Shown: one piece after another, positions 1,958 through 9,747 of the stretch
Position numbering within the stretch: the first letter of the stretch is position 1
Layout: each line of letters opens with the position of its first letter
DNA from: Ignavibacteriales bacterium
GTDB lineage: Bacteria > Bacteroidota > Ignavibacteria > UBA10030 > UBA8401
DNA length: 53,115 nt
Direction: 5' to 3'
NCBI GenBank assembly: GCA_016182545.1
Contig: JACPGG010000024.1
Span: 9,298-62,412 of the forward strand
Position numbers and translations under genes: made by a program
The notes under the pieces: model-generated
What the model was told of the DNA's origin: nothing
Databases searched by the model: none
The model's input: only the letters and a program-made list of their open reading frames with translations

Positions 1958-2782
1958 TTGAAAAAGTATCTCAACTTCATCAAAATTGAACACACACTCT
2001 TTTCCCTGCCGATGATCTATAGCGGAGTGTTTCTCGCTTCAAAAGAGCGCCCTTCTATTCTATTACTCATGTTAGTCCTTGCGGCTGCAGTCGGTGCACG
2101 GCTTGTTGCAATGACATTGAATAGAATTATCGACCGCGAAATAGACAAGTACAATCCCCGCACGATCAATCGTGAATTGCCGAGCGGCAAAATGAATCTG
2201 AAGGAAAGTTACGTCGTTTTAATTCTCGGACTTGCACTCTATCTTGTTTCAGCAAAACTGATATCAGATTTTTGCTTTTATCTTTCTCCAATTCCGTTGA
2301 TCATCTTTATAATTTATCCCTATTTAAAAAGATTTACACCGATGGCGCACTTTGGTGTCGGGATGGGATTAGCAATGGGTCCGCTCGGCGGCTTTTTTGC
2401 GGTGACAGGATCGTTCGAACGATTCGGAGAAGCGCTGCTCCTTCCGCTGTTCAATCTTTTTTGGGCGACCGGATTCGACATCATTTATTCGACGCTCGAT
2501 GAAGAGTTCGATAAGAAAGCGGGATTGTTCTCTTTCCCGTCACGGTTCGGAAAAAAACGTGCGCTACAAATTTCCGGGGGACTGCACATACTAGCATTTG
2601 TTACGCTGATCGCGCTCGTCTATTTTTCGTTGCATGCATTGATCGCACTTCCCTCTTTGTTCCTGAGCGGATTTCTGCTGTGGCTTGAGCAGCACAAAGC
2701 GGAGGATGTGGAGTTGGCGTTCTTCAAGATCAATATTGTAGTCGGTTTCTCAATTTTAGTTATGATACTGGTAAGTATTTAA
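1958..2782 (+). CDS. ubiA: UbiA-family polyprenyltransferase of the futalosine menaquinone pathway (MqnP-like)
   Basis: IKIEHTLFSLP, NRIIDREIDKYNPRT and GFDIIYSTLDEEFD motifs; multiple TM helices; first gene of the mqn cluster; TTG start. Confidence 0.92.
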   Translation: MKKYLNFIKIEHTLFSLPMIYSGVFLASKERPSILLLMLVLAAAVGARLVAMTLNRIIDREIDKYNPRTINRELPSGKMNLKESYVVLILGLALYLVSAKLISDFCFYLSPIPLIIFIIYPYLKRFTPMAHFGVGMGLAMGPLGGFFAVTGSFERFGEALLLPLFNLFWATGFDIIYSTLDEEFDKKAGLFSFPSRFGKKRALQISGGLHILAFVTLIALVYFSLHALIALPSLFLSGFLLWLEQHKAEDVELAFFKINIVVGFSILVMILVSI

Positions 2783-2841
2783 CCACGAAAGCACCAAAGC
2801 ACAAAATAAAATTCATTTAATGAGTTTGTGATTTGGTGGTT
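2781..2841. repeat. Short-unit repeat imperfect hairpin (AACCACGAAAGCACCAAAGCACAAA...TTTGTGATTTGGTGGTT)
   Basis: Tandem CACnAAAG-like units on the left arm pair with the right arm; fills the ubiA-ubiX gap. Confidence 0.55.
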
Positions 2842-2848
2842 ACGAAGA

Positions 2849-3400
2849 ATGAAAATTATCGTCGGAATAACAGGAAGTTCTGGTGCAGTCTACGCGCTCG
2901 ATTTCCTTAAAAAATCTCAATCGGAAAAATTTCTCGTCGTCAGTAAATGGGGAAAGACGTTGTTGAAGGACGAATTAGGAATGAACGATTCAGATCTGCT
3001 TCCTTTTGTTAAAAAACAATTTGACGATAAGGATTTGACGGCGCCGATCGCCTCCGGATCGAATCATTTTGATGCATACGTGATCCTACCCTGCTCTACT
3101 TCGACACTTGGTAAGATCGCATCCGGAATAGGCGACTCATTGATTACAAGAACTGCGCAAGTTGCATTGAAAGAGCGTTACAAACTAGTCATTTGTGTGC
3201 GCGAAACGCCAATGTCCACGCTTGCACTGGAACAATGCGCAAAACTTTCGAATTACGGCGCCATTATCATGCCGATCTCGCCGCCTCTTTATTTCGTCCC
3301 AAAATCAGTTGATGAATACATCGGTGCATTCACAGAAAAAGTACTGGGTGTGCTTGGGGAACGAAAAGCAAAAGGGTGGCGGGCAGAAGAAATGGAATAA
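2849..3400 (+). CDS. ubiX: Flavin prenyltransferase UbiX
   Basis: MKIIVGITGSSG, IASGS, PCS..TLGKIA and VRETP motifs; adjacent to ubiD. Confidence 0.95.
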   Translation: MKIIVGITGSSGAVYALDFLKKSQSEKFLVVSKWGKTLLKDELGMNDSDLLPFVKKQFDDKDLTAPIASGSNHFDAYVILPCSTSTLGKIASGIGDSLITRTAQVALKERYKLVICVRETPMSTLALEQCAKLSNYGAIIMPISPPLYFVPKSVDEYIGAFTEKVLGVLGERKAKGWRAEEME

Positions 3401-3451
3401 TGATTTTCAATTTTTATTTGAAAATTGAAGACAATAAATTGGAAATGATGC

Positions 3452-5218
3452 ATGTTCGATAATCTACAGGATTTTGTAAAACATCTCGAAAAGAACGGCG
3501 AACTTCACCGCGTTACGGTCGAAGTCGATCCCGAATTGGAAATTACTGAGATCGCTACACGCTCGTTGGCACTCGGTAAACCTGCGTTATTATTTGAAAA
3601 CGTCAGGGGAGCAGATTTCCCTCTTGTCATCAACATGCTTGCAAGCGAGCGGCGCATCGAACTTGCACTCGGCAAACATCCGGACGAACTCGGCGAAGAG
3701 CTGATCGGTTTTGTTGAAAAATTAATGCCGCCGTCACCGAAATTATTATTCCAGGAATCGGCGATGGTGAAACGATTCATCGCTTCCCGTCCCAAACATG
3801 TCACCGTCGCACGTTCGCAAGCGGTGATTGAAAAACCGAATCTTTCCGCGCTTCCCATTTTAAAAACATGGCCCGAAGATGGCGGACGGTTCATCACGCT
3901 CCCCCAGGTCATCACATATGATCCGAAAACCGGAAAAAGGAACATCGGGATCTATCGCATACAGAAATTCGACGACCAAACCACAGGCATGCACTGGCAG
4001 ATCGGCAAAGGAGGCGGATTCCATTATCACGAAGCGGAGAAATTGAACCAACCGCTCGAAGTTGCACTTATTGTCGGAAGCGACCCCGCGCTTTTGCTCG
4101 CAACGGTTGCTGCTCTCCCCGAAGGAATTGATGAAGCAATGTTCGCCGGTTTCCTGCGCGGCAAAGCGACCGAATTTACAAGCGGACGATCGATCAATGT
4201 GCAGGTTCCGGCAAATGCCGAATTTATTTTTGAAGGGATCGTGAAACCTCACGAACGAAGATTGGAAGGTCCGTTCGGCGACCACTTCGGACATTATTCG
4301 AACGCTGCGGAATTTCCGGTCTTCCATATCCATACGATGACTCGACGAAAGGATCCGATCTATCCGGCAACGATCGTCGGCATTCCGCCGATGGAAGACA
4401 AATATCTCGGTGATGCGACACAGCAAATCCTCGGACCGCTTGCACGGCTGATCCATCACGAAGTAAAAAATGTATGGGCGTATTATGAGGCAGGATTCCA
4501 CAATCTTCTTGTCGTGTCGGTGGAAGAACGGTACCAAAAAGAAGCGATGAAAGCGGCGCTTGGATTGATGGGAACCGGACAATTGTCCCTTACAAAATGC
4601 CTTATGACAGTCTCTGAAAATGTCGATGTCCGTAACTTCAATGAGGTCATGAAAGCGGTACGTGAGAACTTCGATCCGCATTTTGATTTCGTGATGATAC
4701 CGAAAGTCCCGCTCGATACGCTCGACTTCACATCATTTAAAATGAATCTCGGCAGCAAGATGATCATCGATGCGACCGAAAAGAAAAAACCAAAGCAGAA
4801 AATCAATGTGAAGAAATTGAACGAGGTCGTGAAGTCCCTGACATCGTTCGACAGACGGATCATCGATGCGCGATTGGTTGAAGGGGCATTCCTGTTAGTG
4901 AAAGTAAAAAAAGAAGGTGATGCTGTCATTAAAAAAATCGTGAAGCATCCGGATCTCGAAGGTATAAAGATGGCGGCAACGGTGAGCTTCGACGTGGATA
5001 TTAACGAGCAGGAGAGTTATATTTGGGGTGTTTTTACCCGATTCGATTGTGAGCGGGATATTATTTTCACTGAACAAAAAATGATCGGCATCTCTCCTAT
5101 CTATAACGGCATCCTTGGAATCGACGCCACATGGAAGAACGGGTACCCGAATCCATTGACGATGGACGAATCGGTCGTGAAAAAAGTTGATGAGCGGTGG
5201 GACAGTTACTGGCGGTAA
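3452..5218 (+). CDS. ubiD: UbiD-family decarboxylase, menaquinone (futalosine) pathway type
   Basis: VDPELEITEI, WPEDGGRFITLP, EGPFGDHFGHY, PPMED motifs; the C-terminal IDAT-containing module occurs twice (KMIIDAT, LGIDATWK). Confidence 0.95.
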   Translation: MFDNLQDFVKHLEKNGELHRVTVEVDPELEITEIATRSLALGKPALLFENVRGADFPLVINMLASERRIELALGKHPDELGEELIGFVEKLMPPSPKLLFQESAMVKRFIASRPKHVTVARSQAVIEKPNLSALPILKTWPEDGGRFITLPQVITYDPKTGKRNIGIYRIQKFDDQTTGMHWQIGKGGGFHYHEAEKLNQPLEVALIVGSDPALLLATVAALPEGIDEAMFAGFLRGKATEFTSGRSINVQVPANAEFIFEGIVKPHERRLEGPFGDHFGHYSNAAEFPVFHIHTMTRRKDPIYPATIVGIPPMEDKYLGDATQQILGPLARLIHHEVKNVWAYYEAGFHNLLVVSVEERYQKEAMKAALGLMGTGQLSLTKCLMTVSENVDVRNFNEVMKAVRENFDPHFDFVMIPKVPLDTLDFTSFKMNLGSKMIIDATEKKKPKQKINVKKLNEVVKSLTSFDRRIIDARLVEGAFLLVKVKKEGDAVIKKIVKHPDLEGIKMAATVSFDVDINEQESYIWGVFTRFDCERDIIFTEQKMIGISPIYNGILGIDATWKNGYPNPLTMDESVVKKVDERWDSYWR

Positions 5219-5245: not shown

Positions 5246-5383
5246 ATGAGTACTTCAATACATTTCAGAGACAAAAATTTATTTACCGTTTGGGACAAGA
5301 TCCAAAAGGGTGAGCGACTTTCGTTACACGACGGGTTGGCGCTGTTCCATTCCAACAGATGGCGCACGCCGTGCAGCAACTGA
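5246..5383 (+). pseudogene. mqnE: Out-of-frame N-terminal fragment of MqnE (MSTSIHFRDKNLFTVWDKIQKGERLSLHDGLALFHSN)
   Basis: Translated by hand. It aligns with the N-terminus of the paralog MqnC (KIRSGKRIDREEGLFVLRNS). The frame shifts at about 5357 relative to the 5359 ORF, and about 6-7 codons appear to be missing. Confidence 0.75.
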
Positions 5384-7089
5384 AGAGTGGCGACGCTGTC
5401 TATTACGTCGTCAATCAAAAGATCGAGCCGACAAATATCTGTGTCCTTTCGTGCAAGTTCTGCGACTTCGCCGTAAAGCAAGGTACGCCTCAGGCGTATG
5501 AGATGACGATCGAGGAGATCCTATCCAAACTCAATTCCGATGTTCATGAGGTTCACATCACCGGCGGCTTGCATCCGGATTGGCCCTGGGAGTATTACGT
5601 CGGGATGGTCCGTGACATTAAAAAAGCATTCCCGCAGATCGATGTGAAAGCGTTCACAGCGGTCGAGATCGATTTTTTCCATAAGAAATTCAAGATGCCC
5701 ATTGAAGAAGTGCTGCGACAATTATATGACGTCGGACTTCGCACAATGCCCGGGGGCGGCGCGGAAGTATTTTCGGAACGAGTTCGCAAACTTCTCTTCA
5801 ACCAAAAGATCGGCGCCAAAACATGGTTTGAAGTTCACAAGACGGCACACAAACTCGGCATCCCGTCGAACTCCACGCTTCTGTACGGTCACGTCGAAAC
5901 GTACGAAGAGCGTGTTATTCACATGATGAAACTGCGCGAAGCACAGGATGAGACCGGCGGGTTTTTGTCATTCATCCCTCTTGCCTTTCAACCGGGCGAA
6001 ACAGGAATAAAACCAAAGAATGAGTTTACATCAGCGATCGAAGATTTGAAGACGATTGCCATCTCCCGCTTGATGCTCGATAATTTCCCCCACATCAAAG
6101 CATACTGGGTAATGCTAACGGAAGAAGTCGCCTCAGTCGCTTTGAATTTTGGCGCAGACGATATGGATGGAACTGTCGGTGGCGAAAAAATTGCGCATGA
6201 TGCCGGCGCGATCAGTCCAATGGCAATGGCAAAGGATAAACTGATCAAGATCATCAACGACGCCGGAAAAATTCCGGTGGAGCGGGATGTCTATTACAAC
6301 GCACTGAATGTCAACACCGATCATGTCATTGGAAAGATCCCGTATCTCAACTCAGTTCCTTTCTACAAATATTTTGAGCAGCGGCAATTCAAAATGCTCC
6401 CCATCGCGCCGCGCAGAATGGGTGTCCTCTCACAAAAGGGACAGATCGATGCAGGACTGTTTTCATTGATGGATTATTTTGCGCAGGAAGAAACATTGGA
6501 AACGATGGACTATTGCATCGCTTCGCGCGACCAGGTGAAAAGCGTTATTCTCTTTTCGAAAGAAGGGTGGCAGGGATTGAACGAGAAAAAGATCGGCATT
6601 ATCGATGATACAGCGACATCCGTCTGGCTGTTGCAGGTGCTGCTCGAAAAAAAATACGGCGTAAAAGCCCAATTCATCCGCATGCACGCCGGCATCAACG
6701 ACTATTCGCAATTCGATGCCGTGCTGTTGATCGGCGATGAAGCATTAAAGGCAAATAAGAGCGGATTTACCGGCTTTGATATCACGTACGACCTTGCAAA
6801 AGAATGGTACGATTGGCAGAAGATACCGTTCGTTTTTGCGGTATGGGCGAACAAAAAGAGTCTTCCCGTAGAACTCAAACTAGAACTTTCAACGATCATT
6901 CAACAATCTCTGGAACGCGGAAAATTAGAATTGGATATAATAGGTACATTACATGCAAAATCACTGCATTTAACATCGGAAGAAGCGGGCGATTTCCTGC
7001 GCGGCTTCAACTATCATTTGGGTGAACGGGAAAAAGAGGCATTGCAGGTGTTCAAAAAACTTATTGAAGAAGTCGAAGTAAGTTTGTAA
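5359..7089 (+). CDS. mqnE: Fusion of aminofutalosine synthase MqnE (radical SAM) and chorismate dehydratase MqnA; true start probably 5246, broken by a frameshift
   Basis: CVLSCKFC radical SAM motif, EVHITGGLHP, PGGGAE, HIKAYW (MqnE). From about 6322: GKIPYLNSVPF, LLIGDEAL, DLAKEWYDWQKIPFVFAVWA (MqnA). Confidence 0.92.
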   Translation: MAHAVQQLKSGDAVYYVVNQKIEPTNICVLSCKFCDFAVKQGTPQAYEMTIEEILSKLNSDVHEVHITGGLHPDWPWEYYVGMVRDIKKAFPQIDVKAFTAVEIDFFHKKFKMPIEEVLRQLYDVGLRTMPGGGAEVFSERVRKLLFNQKIGAKTWFEVHKTAHKLGIPSNSTLLYGHVETYEERVIHMMKLREAQDETGGFLSFIPLAFQPGETGIKPKNEFTSAIEDLKTIAISRLMLDNFPHIKAYWVMLTEEVASVALNFGADDMDGTVGGEKIAHDAGAISPMAMAKDKLIKIINDAGKIPVERDVYYNALNVNTDHVIGKIPYLNSVPFYKYFEQRQFKMLPIAPRRMGVLSQKGQIDAGLFSLMDYFAQEETLETMDYCIASRDQVKSVILFSKEGWQGLNEKKIGIIDDTATSVWLLQVLLEKKYGVKAQFIRMHAGINDYSQFDAVLLIGDEALKANKSGFTGFDITYDLAKEWYDWQKIPFVFAVWANKKSLPVELKLELSTIIQQSLERGKLELDIIGTLHAKSLHLTSEEAGDFLRGFNYHLGEREKEALQVFKKLIEEVEVSL

Positions 7090-7122: not shown

Positions 7123-7986
7123 ATGGATCAACAGAACGTTTCAAAACTCCAAGAACTCATTCAGCAAGGCGAAAAATTAGTCCCCGAGGGCGGTCTGGAA
7201 TTTTCAGGTTACAACGCCAAGATGCAGAGCCAGTATTTACTCTGGCGGAAGAACTGCCTTGATGCGTTGTCAAAGATCGGTGAGAAAGCGAATCCGCATC
7301 GCGAAAAAATTACAAAGGATGAGAACGGCGCGTACTTCTATCAGAATTCCGCACAGTTGATTCTTGAAATGATGAAACAGTCTTTGCCGATCGCAGAGAT
7401 CGAAGCGAAAAAGAATTCTACTCCGCCTTCTGCGCCAAAACCTGCACCTGCTCCGGCACCGCCAAAGGCAGAACCGGCTCCAGCTCCTGCTCAACCAAAG
7501 GCGGCACCACAACCTGCACCACCGGCACCTAAACAGGAAGCTGCAAAACCGCAGCCCGCAGCAGTACCGCCCCCTGCTCCTGTAACGCCATCTGCGGCAA
7601 GCAAACAGGTGCTTGTGCTTTCATCGTCTGAGACTGAATTAAAAAATCAGTTGACGAATTTGTTGAAAGAAATGGGTATCGAAGGGATCATGTTCCAACG
7701 AGGTGATGCACCGGATGCAATCGTGGGATTTTTGGAGAAATATCCGACTGTAAAATATGCGTACTATTTGTACAATCCCGAAGACATCAATAGTGCAATG
7801 TTCGAACTTGGTTATCTGATCGGGAAAGTCGGATCGACCAGAGTATGCTGCATCCATAAAAAGGACGATGCACCGCCGAAAGGGGTTCCGGGAATTGTGT
7901 ACAAGGAGATCGTCGTGAAACTGGAAGAGATCAGTTTCGGTCTGATCAAAGATCTAAAAGCAGCGGGATACACAGTAACATTTTAA
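7123..7986 (+). CDS. Helical N-domain + Pro/Ala-rich linker + divergent TIR-like domain (CAP12/Pycsar-type, PF10137-like)
   Basis: The C-terminal ~125 aa match the PF10137 pattern by eye: V.V....E..K..L...L..MG.E, YA..L..P.D, MFELGYLIGKVG..RVC, P....G.VY, L.KDLKAAGY. Confidence 0.72.
   Translation: MDQQNVSKLQELIQQGEKLVPEGGLEFSGYNAKMQSQYLLWRKNCLDALSKIGEKANPHREKITKDENGAYFYQNSAQLILEMMKQSLPIAEIEAKKNSTPPSAPKPAPAPAPPKAEPAPAPAQPKAAPQPAPPAPKQEAAKPQPAAVPPPAPVTPSAASKQVLVLSSSETELKNQLTNLLKEMGIEGIMFQRGDAPDAIVGFLEKYPTVKYAYYLYNPEDINSAMFELGYLIGKVGSTRVCCIHKKDDAPPKGVPGIVYKEIVVKLEEISFGLIKDLKAAGYTVTF
7420..7595 (+). repeat. Low-complexity Pro/Ala-rich linker coding repeat
   Basis: Encodes TPPSAPKPAPAPAPPKAEPAPAPAQPKAAPQPAPPAPKQEAAKPQPAAVPPPAPVTPSA. 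Confidence 0.8.
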
Positions 7987-7999
7987 CTATTCACATTGC

Positions 8000-8033
8000 A
8001 ACCTTGCGAAGGTTCTACAGCCTTCGCAAGGTT
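8000..8033. repeat. REP-like inverted repeat, family A (second copy)
   Basis: AACCTTGCGAAGGTT-ctac-AGCCTTCGCAAGGTT, nearly identical to 764-796. Confidence 0.85.
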
Positions 8034-8042
8034 TTTTATGTT

Positions 8043-9137
8043 ATGACACTCTCAGAAATTTATTCTAAAATACGCAGCGGTAAACGGATCGATCGTGAAG
8101 AAGGATTGTTCGTCCTCCGCAATTCTCAGTTGCTTGATCTTGGCGATCTCGCCAACGAAATTCGTTTTAAAAAAAATCCGGACCCCCGTGTAACATTCGT
8201 TCTTGATTCAAATCCAAATTACACAAACATCTGCAACATCGATTGCATCTTCTGCGCGTTTTACCGCCATCCGGGTGAATCCGGTGAATACACGTACTCG
8301 GTGGATGAGATGATCCGGAAATTCAAAGAGTCGGCTGCCAAAGGAATAACGACGATCTTATTGCAGGGGGGAGTAAACCCTGCGCTCCCCTTCGATTATT
8401 ATGTTGAAATGATCAAACGGACGATCAAAGAAGTTCCGCAGATCCATCCGCATTTCTACTCGACATCGGAGATACTCGAAATGGTCCGTGTGTCCGGATT
8501 GACGCTGCCCGAAGTGCTGCAAAAATTGTGGGACGCAGGATTGCGTACCATCCCCGGCGGAGGTGCAGAGATTCTCTCTGATCGCGTAAAGAAGAAGATC
8601 AGCAGCAAAAAAGGGACATCGGCAGACTGGCTGAGCGTGATGCGTGAAGCGCACAAGATCGGCTACCGGACAACAGCAACGATGATGTACGGACATCTTG
8701 AAAAGGATGAAGATATCGTTGAACATCTGGAGGTGGTCAGGCAATTGCAGGATGAGCATCACGGATTCACCGCATTCGTCCCGTGGAGTTTTAAACCCGG
8801 GAATACTCCGCTGGAAAAGATCATACCGACATACGCAACACCCAAGCGGTACCTTGAAATGATCGCCTTCTCACGCATCTATCTTGATAATTTTGATCAC
8901 ATACAAGCATCGTGGTTCAGCGAAGGGAAAAAGACGGGACAGATCGCACTCCATTTCGGCGCGGATGATTTCGGCGGCACTCTTCTTGAAGAGAATGTCC
9001 ACGCAGCGGCAAACTTCGTCAACAAAACAAACACGGAAGAATGCATCTCACTGATCCATGAATCCGGTTTTGATGCCGGACAGAGGGGAACGCTGTATGA
9101 GATCAAGAGAATCATCCCACGAACAAAAGCGGCGTAA
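8043..9137 (+). CDS. mqnC: Cyclic dehypoxanthine futalosine synthase MqnC (radical SAM)
   Basis: NYTNICNIDCIFCAFYR, LLQGGVNP, PGGGAEILSDRV, HIQASW and GADDFGGTLLEENV motifs. The ATG at 8043 lies just after the REP-like repeat. Confidence 0.93.
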   Translation: MTLSEIYSKIRSGKRIDREEGLFVLRNSQLLDLGDLANEIRFKKNPDPRVTFVLDSNPNYTNICNIDCIFCAFYRHPGESGEYTYSVDEMIRKFKESAAKGITTILLQGGVNPALPFDYYVEMIKRTIKEVPQIHPHFYSTSEILEMVRVSGLTLPEVLQKLWDAGLRTIPGGGAEILSDRVKKKISSKKGTSADWLSVMREAHKIGYRTTATMMYGHLEKDEDIVEHLEVVRQLQDEHHGFTAFVPWSFKPGNTPLEKIIPTYATPKRYLEMIAFSRIYLDNFDHIQASWFSEGKKTGQIALHFGADDFGGTLLEENVHAAANFVNKTNTEECISLIHESGFDAGQRGTLYEIKRIIPRTKAA

Positions 9138-9747
9138 CGGAACTCCGCTTTTTGTTTTCCTCCTTCTTTCGCCTTACATCGTCGGATTCTCATCCCCTGA
9201 CTCATCATACTCATATACAGAATCAATGTACGGTATCGGCGGCGGGCAATATGTGTACCATGATTGTTCCGGTGCGCACAAACGGCCATTTGCTGATGTC
9301 GGATTCTATTCAGGGAAAAAATTTGACGGTCCTTACAGGATCGGCATATCACTGGGTGGAGCCTACGTTGGAGACGGAACAGCTCTACCGTTGATATATC
9401 CCGATCTTGCTCTTGATTGGGAAAATTTTTCGATCGGCACAACCGGGATCCGGTTCGGCTCACAAAATAAATTCTACTTGGAGAGCAAATGGGGAGACCA
9501 ACCACCGTTCCTTTCTGGCAAAGGATTTTTGAGAATGGGCTTCGGCTGGAAACCGGATCCATATTCACCGGGATTTTGGATCGGAACGAACGTATTCCCC
9601 TATACAAATACCGGTCTGGCGTTACAAGTAGAGTTCCCTCTTCAAGAGAACAGATCTATTTTTATCAACGGGAGATACGGGATAGATCGTGAGAGTACAT
9701 TTGATGAATATGGTATTTCGTTCGGAATAAGAATATTGACGTACTAA
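9097..9747 (+). CDS. Hypothetical exported / outer-membrane beta-strand protein (start uncertain, 9058 or 9097)
   Basis: Hydrophobic signal-like stretch (LFVFLLLSPYIVG), Gly/aromatic-rich alternating pattern, ends YGISFGIRILTY. Confidence 0.6.
   Translation: MRSRESSHEQKRRNGTPLFVFLLLSPYIVGFSSPDSSYSYTESMYGIGGGQYVYHDCSGAHKRPFADVGFYSGKKFDGPYRIGISLGGAYVGDGTALPLIYPDLALDWENFSIGTTGIRFGSQNKFYLESKWGDQPPFLSGKGFLRMGFGWKPDPYSPGFWIGTNVFPYTNTGLALQVEFPLQENRSIFINGRYGIDRESTFDEYGISFGIRILTY

Follow-up and report, generated by a model that had tools for sequence, protein, structure and literature searches.

A degenerate CAP12-type TIR gene in a futalosine operon of two Ignavibacteria-like families: single gain, purifying selection and retention after loss of the pathway

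Bacterial TIR proteins are known as patchy, mobile immune effectors. The presence of a gene for such a protein in the middle of a futalosine operon raises the question of what it does there, and in particular of whether it serves the menaquinone pathway encoded around it. The gene considered here lies on a 53,115-nt stretch of DNA from an Ignavibacteriales bacterium, which is referred to below as the window. The initial annotation of this locus had proposed several possibilities, namely a non-orthologous MqnB, a link between NAD+ turnover and quinone synthesis, a domesticated defence-derived fold or an unrelated insertion. As discussed below, the gene is probably not the missing enzyme of the pathway, and domestication of a sensor-TIR protein is the reading that is preferred.

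The gene and its operon

The features of the locus that are relevant here are the following (window coordinates):

1958..5218, + strand: mqnP (UbiA-type), ubiX and mqnL (UbiD-type), the first half of the operon
5246..7089, + strand: mqnE::mqnA fusion, with its true start at 5246
7123..7986, + strand: TIR-like gene (P0001), 287 aa, single copy and vertically inherited in two families
7123..7413, + strand: N-terminal four-helix domain (residues 1-97), without a Pfam family
7414..7599, + strand: disordered Pro/Ala linker, 62 aa here
7600..7983, + strand: degenerate CAP12/Pycsar-type TIR domain (PF10137), with the long DD...RxNV connector deleted and the alphaC helix kept
7804..7806, + strand: Glu228 codon, equivalent of the SfSTING catalytic E84
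8000..8033, + strand: inverted repeat of 13 bp with a T-run behind it, one of 11 copies of a small repeat found across the genome
8043..9137, + strand: mqnC, with TIGR03699 over the cut-off

The order of the operon is thus mqnP(ubiA)-ubiX-mqnL(ubiD)-mqnE::mqnA-[TIR gene]-mqnC. As initially described, the TIR gene is co-directional with its neighbours, starting 33 bp past the mqnE-mqnA stop codon and ending 56 bp before the mqnC ATG (8043). The start of mqnE looks frameshifted in the window (5246-5358), where the assembly lacks 19 nt near 5356; a contig of a second public run spans the site with the missing bases, a contig of the first run has them as a loose end, and the broken start is an assembly slip.

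A Pfam scan of the 40 other ORFs of the window, the six operon ORFs being scanned separately, gave no cyclase, no STING, SAVED or cNMP sensor, no PNP or MTAN and no MqnD, and there was no defence gene among the scanned ORFs. A SMODS-family CD-NTase was likewise without a match in 5/5 genomes searched. The earlier statement that the window is devoid of a cyclase and of a cNMP or STING sensor is thereby borne out, and so is the absence of mqnB/MTAN; that of mqnD stands for the window only, as MqnD is encoded elsewhere in the same genome, on contig C157. A REP-like repeat directly behind the gene had also been reported; it is indeed an inverted repeat, window positions 764 and 8000-8033 being two of the 11 genomic copies of a small palindromic element, but it is found behind only 5/76 orthologues and was thus rejected as a mark of recent insertion, since it says nothing about the arrival of the gene. 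In close relatives, the spacer between the TIR gene and mqnC carries a different hairpin with a T-run. Further downstream, a 229-aa ORF after mqnC (window 9058-9747) matches no Pfam or NCBIfam family and occurs at this site in some relatives only.

Architecture, ancestry and active site

In the AlphaFold model of the full-length protein (mean pLDDT 73.6, pTM 0.44), a helical N-domain is joined by a disordered linker to an alpha/beta domain with five strands. The N-domain is confidently predicted to form four helices (pLDDT 95). Conservation within the protein is highest here: 26/97 of the N-domain columns are at least 95% conserved, versus 17/128 in the TIR domain, and its conserved patches correspond to P21-N31, in the loop at the end of helix 1, and to an aromatic loop, Y71-F72-Y73. 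The linker had been estimated at about 60 aa and is 62 aa long in the window protein, with 24 Pro and 19 Ala, ranging from 32 to 252 aa across the family. A homodimer prediction for the full-length protein scored 0.20 against a mark of 0.42.

Among solved structures, no sequence match of the N-domain to SpbK or to any PDB chain was detected, and PDB sequence searches with family profiles returned nothing meaningful. Fold searches with the N-domain model gave generic helical bundles only (best Z 8.6; Foldseek best E 0.35), and the ESM Atlas gave unnamed clusters under 0.9. No longer fusion of the N-domain emerged from 7999 scored candidates, the 62 proteins returned all apparently belonging to the TIR-gene family. 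In other bacteria, no fewer than three TIR subtypes are found joined to this unnamed four-helix domain (P0096, P0064, P0097, P0025-P0030).

The C-terminal domain matches PF10137 over residues 162-262 (E 3.8e-8, 33.8 bits versus a cut-off of 24.7) and has both the Glu of the MFELGY motif (E228) and the LKAAGY end, in agreement with what had first been read from the sequence. PF10137 matches 28/28 aligned orthologues at some level, the most divergent members falling below the cut-off. TIR-STING comes top in both fold searches, with a weak E value of 2e-3 in Foldseek and, in VIA, with a Z of 12.3 (rmsd 3.1 over 124 residues) that receiver domains and other TIRs also reach.

A profile search covering 1.84 billion representatives returned 18 clusters at E up to 1e-30, of which 17 belong to the family itself and one is canonical, followed by canonical PF10137 proteins. 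P0025-P0030 combine the same N-domain with an intact TIR, and P0096 combines it with a TIR_2-type domain. The profile-profile match to proteins with the same N-domain extends over both domains, with a probability of 100 and an E value of 1.7e-43, and sequence comparison makes the descent from CAP12-type TIRs clear over both domains. Given the several TIR subtypes to which it is attached, the N-domain has the appearance of a portable sensor module, one for which Pfam has no family.

The protein can be compared with several known systems (general background in PMC11350192 and bioRxiv 10.64898/2026.08.12.744502). Its best PADLOC match is PDC-S35, a candidate phage defence system made of one gene (models PDLC05003-05007), at E 9e-21 over the TIR part only, while canonical relatives with the same N-domain match it at about E 1e-67 to 1e-73, a comparison made on E values; the N-domain alone matches none of the PADLOC models. 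PDC systems are candidates that were defined because they lie within BREX, DISARM or RM loci, and PDC-S35 is not named in the main text that describes them (bioRxiv 10.1101/2024.01.29.577857). PDC-S35 shares with the window protein a stand-alone helical domain followed by a PF10137 TIR in 250-290 aa. In contrast, the window family has neither the HGH, TPDD and RxNV motifs nor the D110 equivalent; it has a long Pro/Ala linker and occupies a fixed site in a housekeeping operon, rather than being patchily distributed near defence loci. The 15 short loci of canonical relatives, mostly recovered through their TIR part, show mixed contexts in a single-protein scan read by eye. With the Cap12 TIR-STING proteins (SfSTING, PDB 7un8; 9lmq) and PycTIR, the family shares the PF10137 subfamily, the catalytic Glu and the alphaC helix, but the window protein lacks a STING, SAVED or cNMP-binding domain and no cyclase lies nearby.

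The likeness to SpbK, encoded by ICEBs1 of Bacillus subtilis, is one of layout, and is to be taken as an analogy. Both proteins have a four-helix N-domain (residues 1-94 in SpbK, 3-97 here), a flexible linker and a C-terminal TIR with a conserved Glu-x-Gly in alphaC, as well as aromatics at nearly the same positions of the alpha3-alpha4 loop. They differ in TIR subtype, SpbK coming only at rank 31 in Foldseek (E 9.5e-3), and in that SpbK, a proven NADase, belongs to a mobile element. The phage portal is recognised by the four-helix domain of SpbK (1-94), which binds it with F69/F71 of the alpha3-alpha4 loop and with the end of helix 1; portal binding clusters the alphaC-linked TIR dimers (PMC12847820). 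As the N-domain is unresolved in the solved SpbK filament (PMC12847820), fold searches could not have found it.

Two further comparisons concern enzymes that cleave N-glycosidic bonds. MqnB and MTAN (PF01048; TIGR03664, TIGR01704) share with the TIR protein only this class of chemistry and the empty place in the pathway; their fold is unrelated, and the TIR gene is not distributed in step with the pathway. The fold of MilB and the nucleoside deoxyribosyltransferases (PF05014/PF15891) is flavodoxin-like and related to that of the TIR, and the same helix bears a Glu (PMC9402430). MilB was recovered as a fold neighbour of the window TIR (Z 10.7), but all 28 aligned members of the family score best with PF10137. 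Weak matches to the nucleoside-deoxyribosyltransferase-like family PF15891 in 6/28 members (best E 0.0039) nonetheless keep a re-specified glycosidase possible.

The active site itself has been remodelled. In SfSTING, the pocket is formed by F6, S10, W33, F37, L47, R78, N80 and E84, together with D110 of the partner subunit, and the alphaC helix is the dimer interface (PMC9402430). The reduction of the DD...RARQNV loop noted at first holds across the family: the connector between D221 and E228 is 6 residues long in 81/82 members and 5 in the remaining one, versus 20-27 residues in 15/15 canonical relatives (this 82-row set leaves out L089, L094 and L097, the latter two being cut by contig ends). 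The loop that bears R78 in SfSTING is thus deleted, and the N80, D110 and F6 equivalents are mostly replaced. Equivalents of R78, N80 and D110 are found in 3/82, 9/82 and 2/82 members, versus 15/15, 15/15 and 14/15 canonical relatives, and the F6 position is Phe in 10/82 members versus 15/15. The E84 equivalent is present in 15/15 canonical relatives and, as Glu228, in 78/82 members, Ala replacing it in one four-genome clade; D221 is conserved in 76/82 members, and Gly230 of alphaC is invariant in the family. Basic residues are conserved as well (K279 in 78/82, K/R261 in 81/82, R193 in at least 95%), while the two families do not have the same residues lining the pocket (S168 in one, E in the other). 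A Ser has been retained at position S10 by members of the window's own family (f1). As there are active TIR NADases whose connector is short, and given this Ser, NADase activity of the family is still conceivable. Glu228 was replaced a single time, and the TIR gene of the clade concerned is a faster-evolving one (dN/dS 0.13-0.29), which suggests that this residue still matters elsewhere.

Distribution and relation to the futalosine pathway

Among 60 related genomes, the TIR gene is present in 33/36 genomes of f1, in 3/3 of a second family (f8) and in 0/21 of seven sister families; in a sample of the phylum (n=400), the corresponding figures are 9/10 for f1, 17/17 for f8 and 0/373 for all others. 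When the contig extends far enough, the TIR gene is immediately preceded by mqnEA in 66/74 loci and immediately followed by mqnC in 69/77. In a tree of MqnEA and MqnC (59 rows), the 39 TIR-bearing operons form one clade against the 20 TIR-less ones (SH-aLRT 99), and the TIR tree, from which L090 and L123 were left out, gives back similar subgroups. The gene was thus gained once, in the ancestor of two Ignavibacteria-like families, and then inherited vertically, as a single copy at one fixed site. It is under purifying selection: outside the Glu-less clade, NG86 estimates of pairwise dN/dS lie at about 0.02-0.12 for each of the two domains in pairs with unsaturated dS (dS being saturated in several others), and frames are intact down to about 35% identity. 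No relative was found in viral contigs or plasmids. The single gain and the selection data speak against the unrelated insertion initially considered as an alternative. In one locus (L089), the TIR frame stops at 103 aa. Another record (L070), labelled Synechococcus, carries an operon with the TIR gene and groups with f1; it is probably mislabelled.

The suggestion that the gene replaces mqnB came in part from the absence of the latter. MTAN and MqnB are the known enzymes of the step in question (PMC13280913), and the parts considered here of two articles on the distribution of the futalosine pathway treat other replacements, with none for MqnB (PMC3914697, PMC4746308). MqnC/MqnE are present in 57 of 61 genomes. 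Across the same 61, no match to MqnB (TIGR03664) exceeds the cut-off and one weak match is seen, while 11/14 control genomes are positive; similarly, MTAN (TIGR01704) is over the cut-off in 0/5 near-complete genomes. The PF01048 matches examined correspond to trimeric-type PNPs, usually two per genome, and to a sporadic third family. The association with mqn genes and the lack of MqnB are both real, but they do not discriminate, since 20 genomes of the TIR-less sister families have the same operon and neither the TIR gene nor MqnB/MTAN. This indicates that the pathway had its hole before the TIR gene arrived, and that the hole is filled without this gene. In these 20 genomes, the gap between mqnEA and mqnC is 0-202 bp long in 15 cases and holds unrelated small genes in 5. 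These passengers (L044, L045, L049, L050, L055) are a Cys-rich protein of about 120 aa and toxin-antitoxin-like pairs, as labelled by eye.

Other fillers of the hole were also considered. PF05014 was matched in 0/5 genomes, and PF01156 in 1/5, then 3/5 genomes, two of these matches being weak. A trimeric-type PNP encoded upstream of ileS (L001:1489-1899, on C34 of the window's own genome; L137:2929-3750) has an Asp where the second paralogue has an Asn, at the base-specificity position, where Asp favours adenine nucleosides. By elimination, this Asp-type PNP is a candidate for aminofutalosine cleavage; it is also retained in genomes without the pathway. In any case, an unrecognised enzyme must release the base across nearly the whole sampled order, and it is not, or not only, the TIR protein.

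The clearest evidence on the relation between the TIR gene and its operon comes from f8, where the usual order is holB-metG-mqnP-ubiX-mqnL-mqnEA-TIR-mqnC-amidohydrolase-mqnD-ubiE. Eight loci instead read (holB-)metG-TIR-amidohydrolase(-ubiE), as far as their contigs reach (L117 begins inside the TIR gene, its upstream side being outside the contig): the mqn blocks on both sides and mqnD are gone. The corresponding 8 genomes have no match to MqnC/MqnE, with 3/3 controls positive, and none to MenB. Each has one weak PF02621 match which, by its score, is a degenerate MqnA paralogue. In the window's own genome, this paralogue lies directly after trmD-rplS (L005:1486-2277, C126), and its persistence in mqn-less f8 genomes makes another role likely for it. 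In a ninth genome, a single chromosome, the intact TIR gene is surrounded by what is left of mqnA, a split mqnC and a menA-like gene (labelled by eye). The 17 near-complete f8 genomes all carry the TIR gene, although 4 of them, from three genera and 99-100% complete, have no MqnC/MqnE and a fifth has a split mqnC only; 3 of these 4 overlap with the set of 8. Altogether, the gene is intact in the 8 pathway-less genomes and in G137, as well as in 2 genomes in which the pathway is decaying. The losses require 4 changes on the tree, at least 2 of which are forced by well-supported branches; the pathway has thus been lost at least twice, and probably four times or more, with the TIR gene retained. 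In the pathway-less genomes, TIR frames are intact and keep the Glu, and pairwise dN/dS is 0.05-0.10 where dS is unsaturated. Maintenance of the TIR gene is independent of the mqn genes, and the proposed link between NAD+ turnover and quinone synthesis is weakened accordingly. Retention would nevertheless be compatible with moonlighting, since a multi-purpose enzyme of the MTAN kind would outlive the pathway too.

The converse situation is found in four genomes of genus g7, three of them rated 100% complete, in which MqnE, A, C and D are kept while Glu228 is replaced by Ala, with no MqnB/MTAN match; a search for nucleoside hydrolases in these four genomes gave weak partial matches in 2 only. 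By contrast, three f1 genomes of 1.7-2.0 Mb (G011, G014, G021) have lost the TIR gene together with the futalosine operon and have the classical men pathway, with MenB over the cut-off, a pattern as compatible with a link to the pathway as with co-deletion in genomes undergoing reduction. At three loci of genomes that are losing the futalosine genes (L121, L209, L215, in G064, G240 and G137), a menA-like prenyltransferase, so labelled by eye, was gained beside the TIR gene, ubiE being kept, and G064 has no MenB match. This gain may reflect a switch to scavenging of naphthoate precursors.

Candidate functions of the TIR protein

Taken together, these data are best explained by a domesticated sensor-TIR protein that is laid out like PDC-S35 and SpbK and would have a non-suicidal, futalosine-independent role; we assign this reading a probability of about 0.58. 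The defence-derived origin envisaged from the start is upheld by the single gain, the vertical descent, the purifying selection and the canonical relatives in PDC-S35. A single-gene ancestor made of a helical sensor and a TIR landed once in the gap between mqnEA and mqnC, which also took unrelated passengers in sister families, and then became a core gene of two families, the operon probably just supplying steady transcription. By analogy with SpbK, the TIR domains may dimerise via the conserved alphaC helix, holding two N-domains on long flexible tethers, and the N-domain may bind an oligomeric protein or ligand through the loop at the end of helix 1 and the Y71-F72-Y73 loop, binding in turn clustering the TIR domains. 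The output would no longer be a bulk, suicidal depletion of NAD+. It could be a weak or re-specified Glu-dependent N-glycosidase step, or else pure scaffolding, the former being slightly favoured because the Glu has changed only once, in the faster-evolving clade.

Several other explanations have to be weighed against domestication. The protein could still act against phages, as a SpbK-like sensor-NADase with an atypical pocket that sees a conserved phage structure and has been fixed as core immunity. The kinship with PDC-S35 candidates, which are the closest relatives, the SpbK-like layout and the independence from the mqn genes would all fit, as would the Glu present in 78/82 members and the conserved K279, K/R261 and R193, which could serve head-to-tail packing. 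We nonetheless regard an anti-phage role as rather unlikely: a single copy inherited at one fixed site contrasts with the scattered contexts of canonical relatives at 15 loci, the R78, N80 and D110 equivalents are lost, and neither defence genes among the scanned window ORFs nor relatives in viral contigs or plasmids were found. At the other extreme, a functionless passenger or a recent mobile insertion might be suggested by the small genes found in the same gap in 5/20 sister genomes and by the repeat that follows the gene here, but this repeat is an exception among orthologues. The selection data refute such a passenger, given the ancient single gain, the low dN/dS, the intact frames and the survival of flanking deletions, so that next to no weight is left for it.

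Enzymatic roles in nucleoside metabolism raise a different issue. A dedicated MqnB replacement would account for the position between mqnEA and mqnC and for the joint loss with the pathway in G011, G014 and G021. It is very improbable, however, as the gene has outlived repeated deletions of the mqn genes that flanked it on both sides and has stayed under purifying selection, is absent from 20 sister genomes that have the pathway and no MqnB, and has lost its Glu in 4 pathway-positive genomes; the initial proposal of a non-orthologous MqnB is thus not sustained. A broad-specificity nucleosidase doing the jobs of MTAN, including clean-up of 5'-deoxyadenosine and MTA as well as aminofutalosine hydrolysis, would explain both the place in the operon and the survival after pathway loss. 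It would also agree with the lack of MqnB/MTAN over the cut-off where MqnC/MqnE are present, with the conserved Glu and D221, and with the shortened connector, which gives the weak PF15891 matches, and the MilB fold neighbour. Against this stand the 20 sister genomes without TIR gene and MqnB/MTAN, which imply that another enzyme covered the step before the TIR gene arrived, the four genomes with Glu replaced by Ala, which keep MqnE, A, C and D and have gained no MqnB/MTAN, and the pocket lining that differs between families, so that we consider this role unlikely. A bolder form of the same idea, which we hold to be just as doubtful, is that an anti-phage TIR NADase was rebuilt as a housekeeping nucleosidase, deletion of the Cap12 loop having opened, in a lineage that lacks MTAN, a pocket for adenine nucleosides such as 5'-deoxyadenosine, MTA and aminofutalosine, and the former phage-sensor domain docking the enzyme on a host complex. 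If true, an immune effector would have turned into a metabolic enzyme, multi-purpose like MTAN and outliving the menaquinone pathway.

In open-access full text, no report was found of this TIR domestication or of the order-wide MqnB/MTAN hole, nor any paper joining TIR with menaquinone and futalosine or describing a non-orthologous MqnB for futalosine in Ignavibacteria. With the domesticated sensor-TIR as the preferred reading, the significance of the locus lies in a TIR that is held as a single-copy core gene in two families, with a rebuilt active site, and that has persisted although the genes flanking it on both sides were repeatedly deleted; it would represent a clean natural case of domestication from defence to housekeeping.
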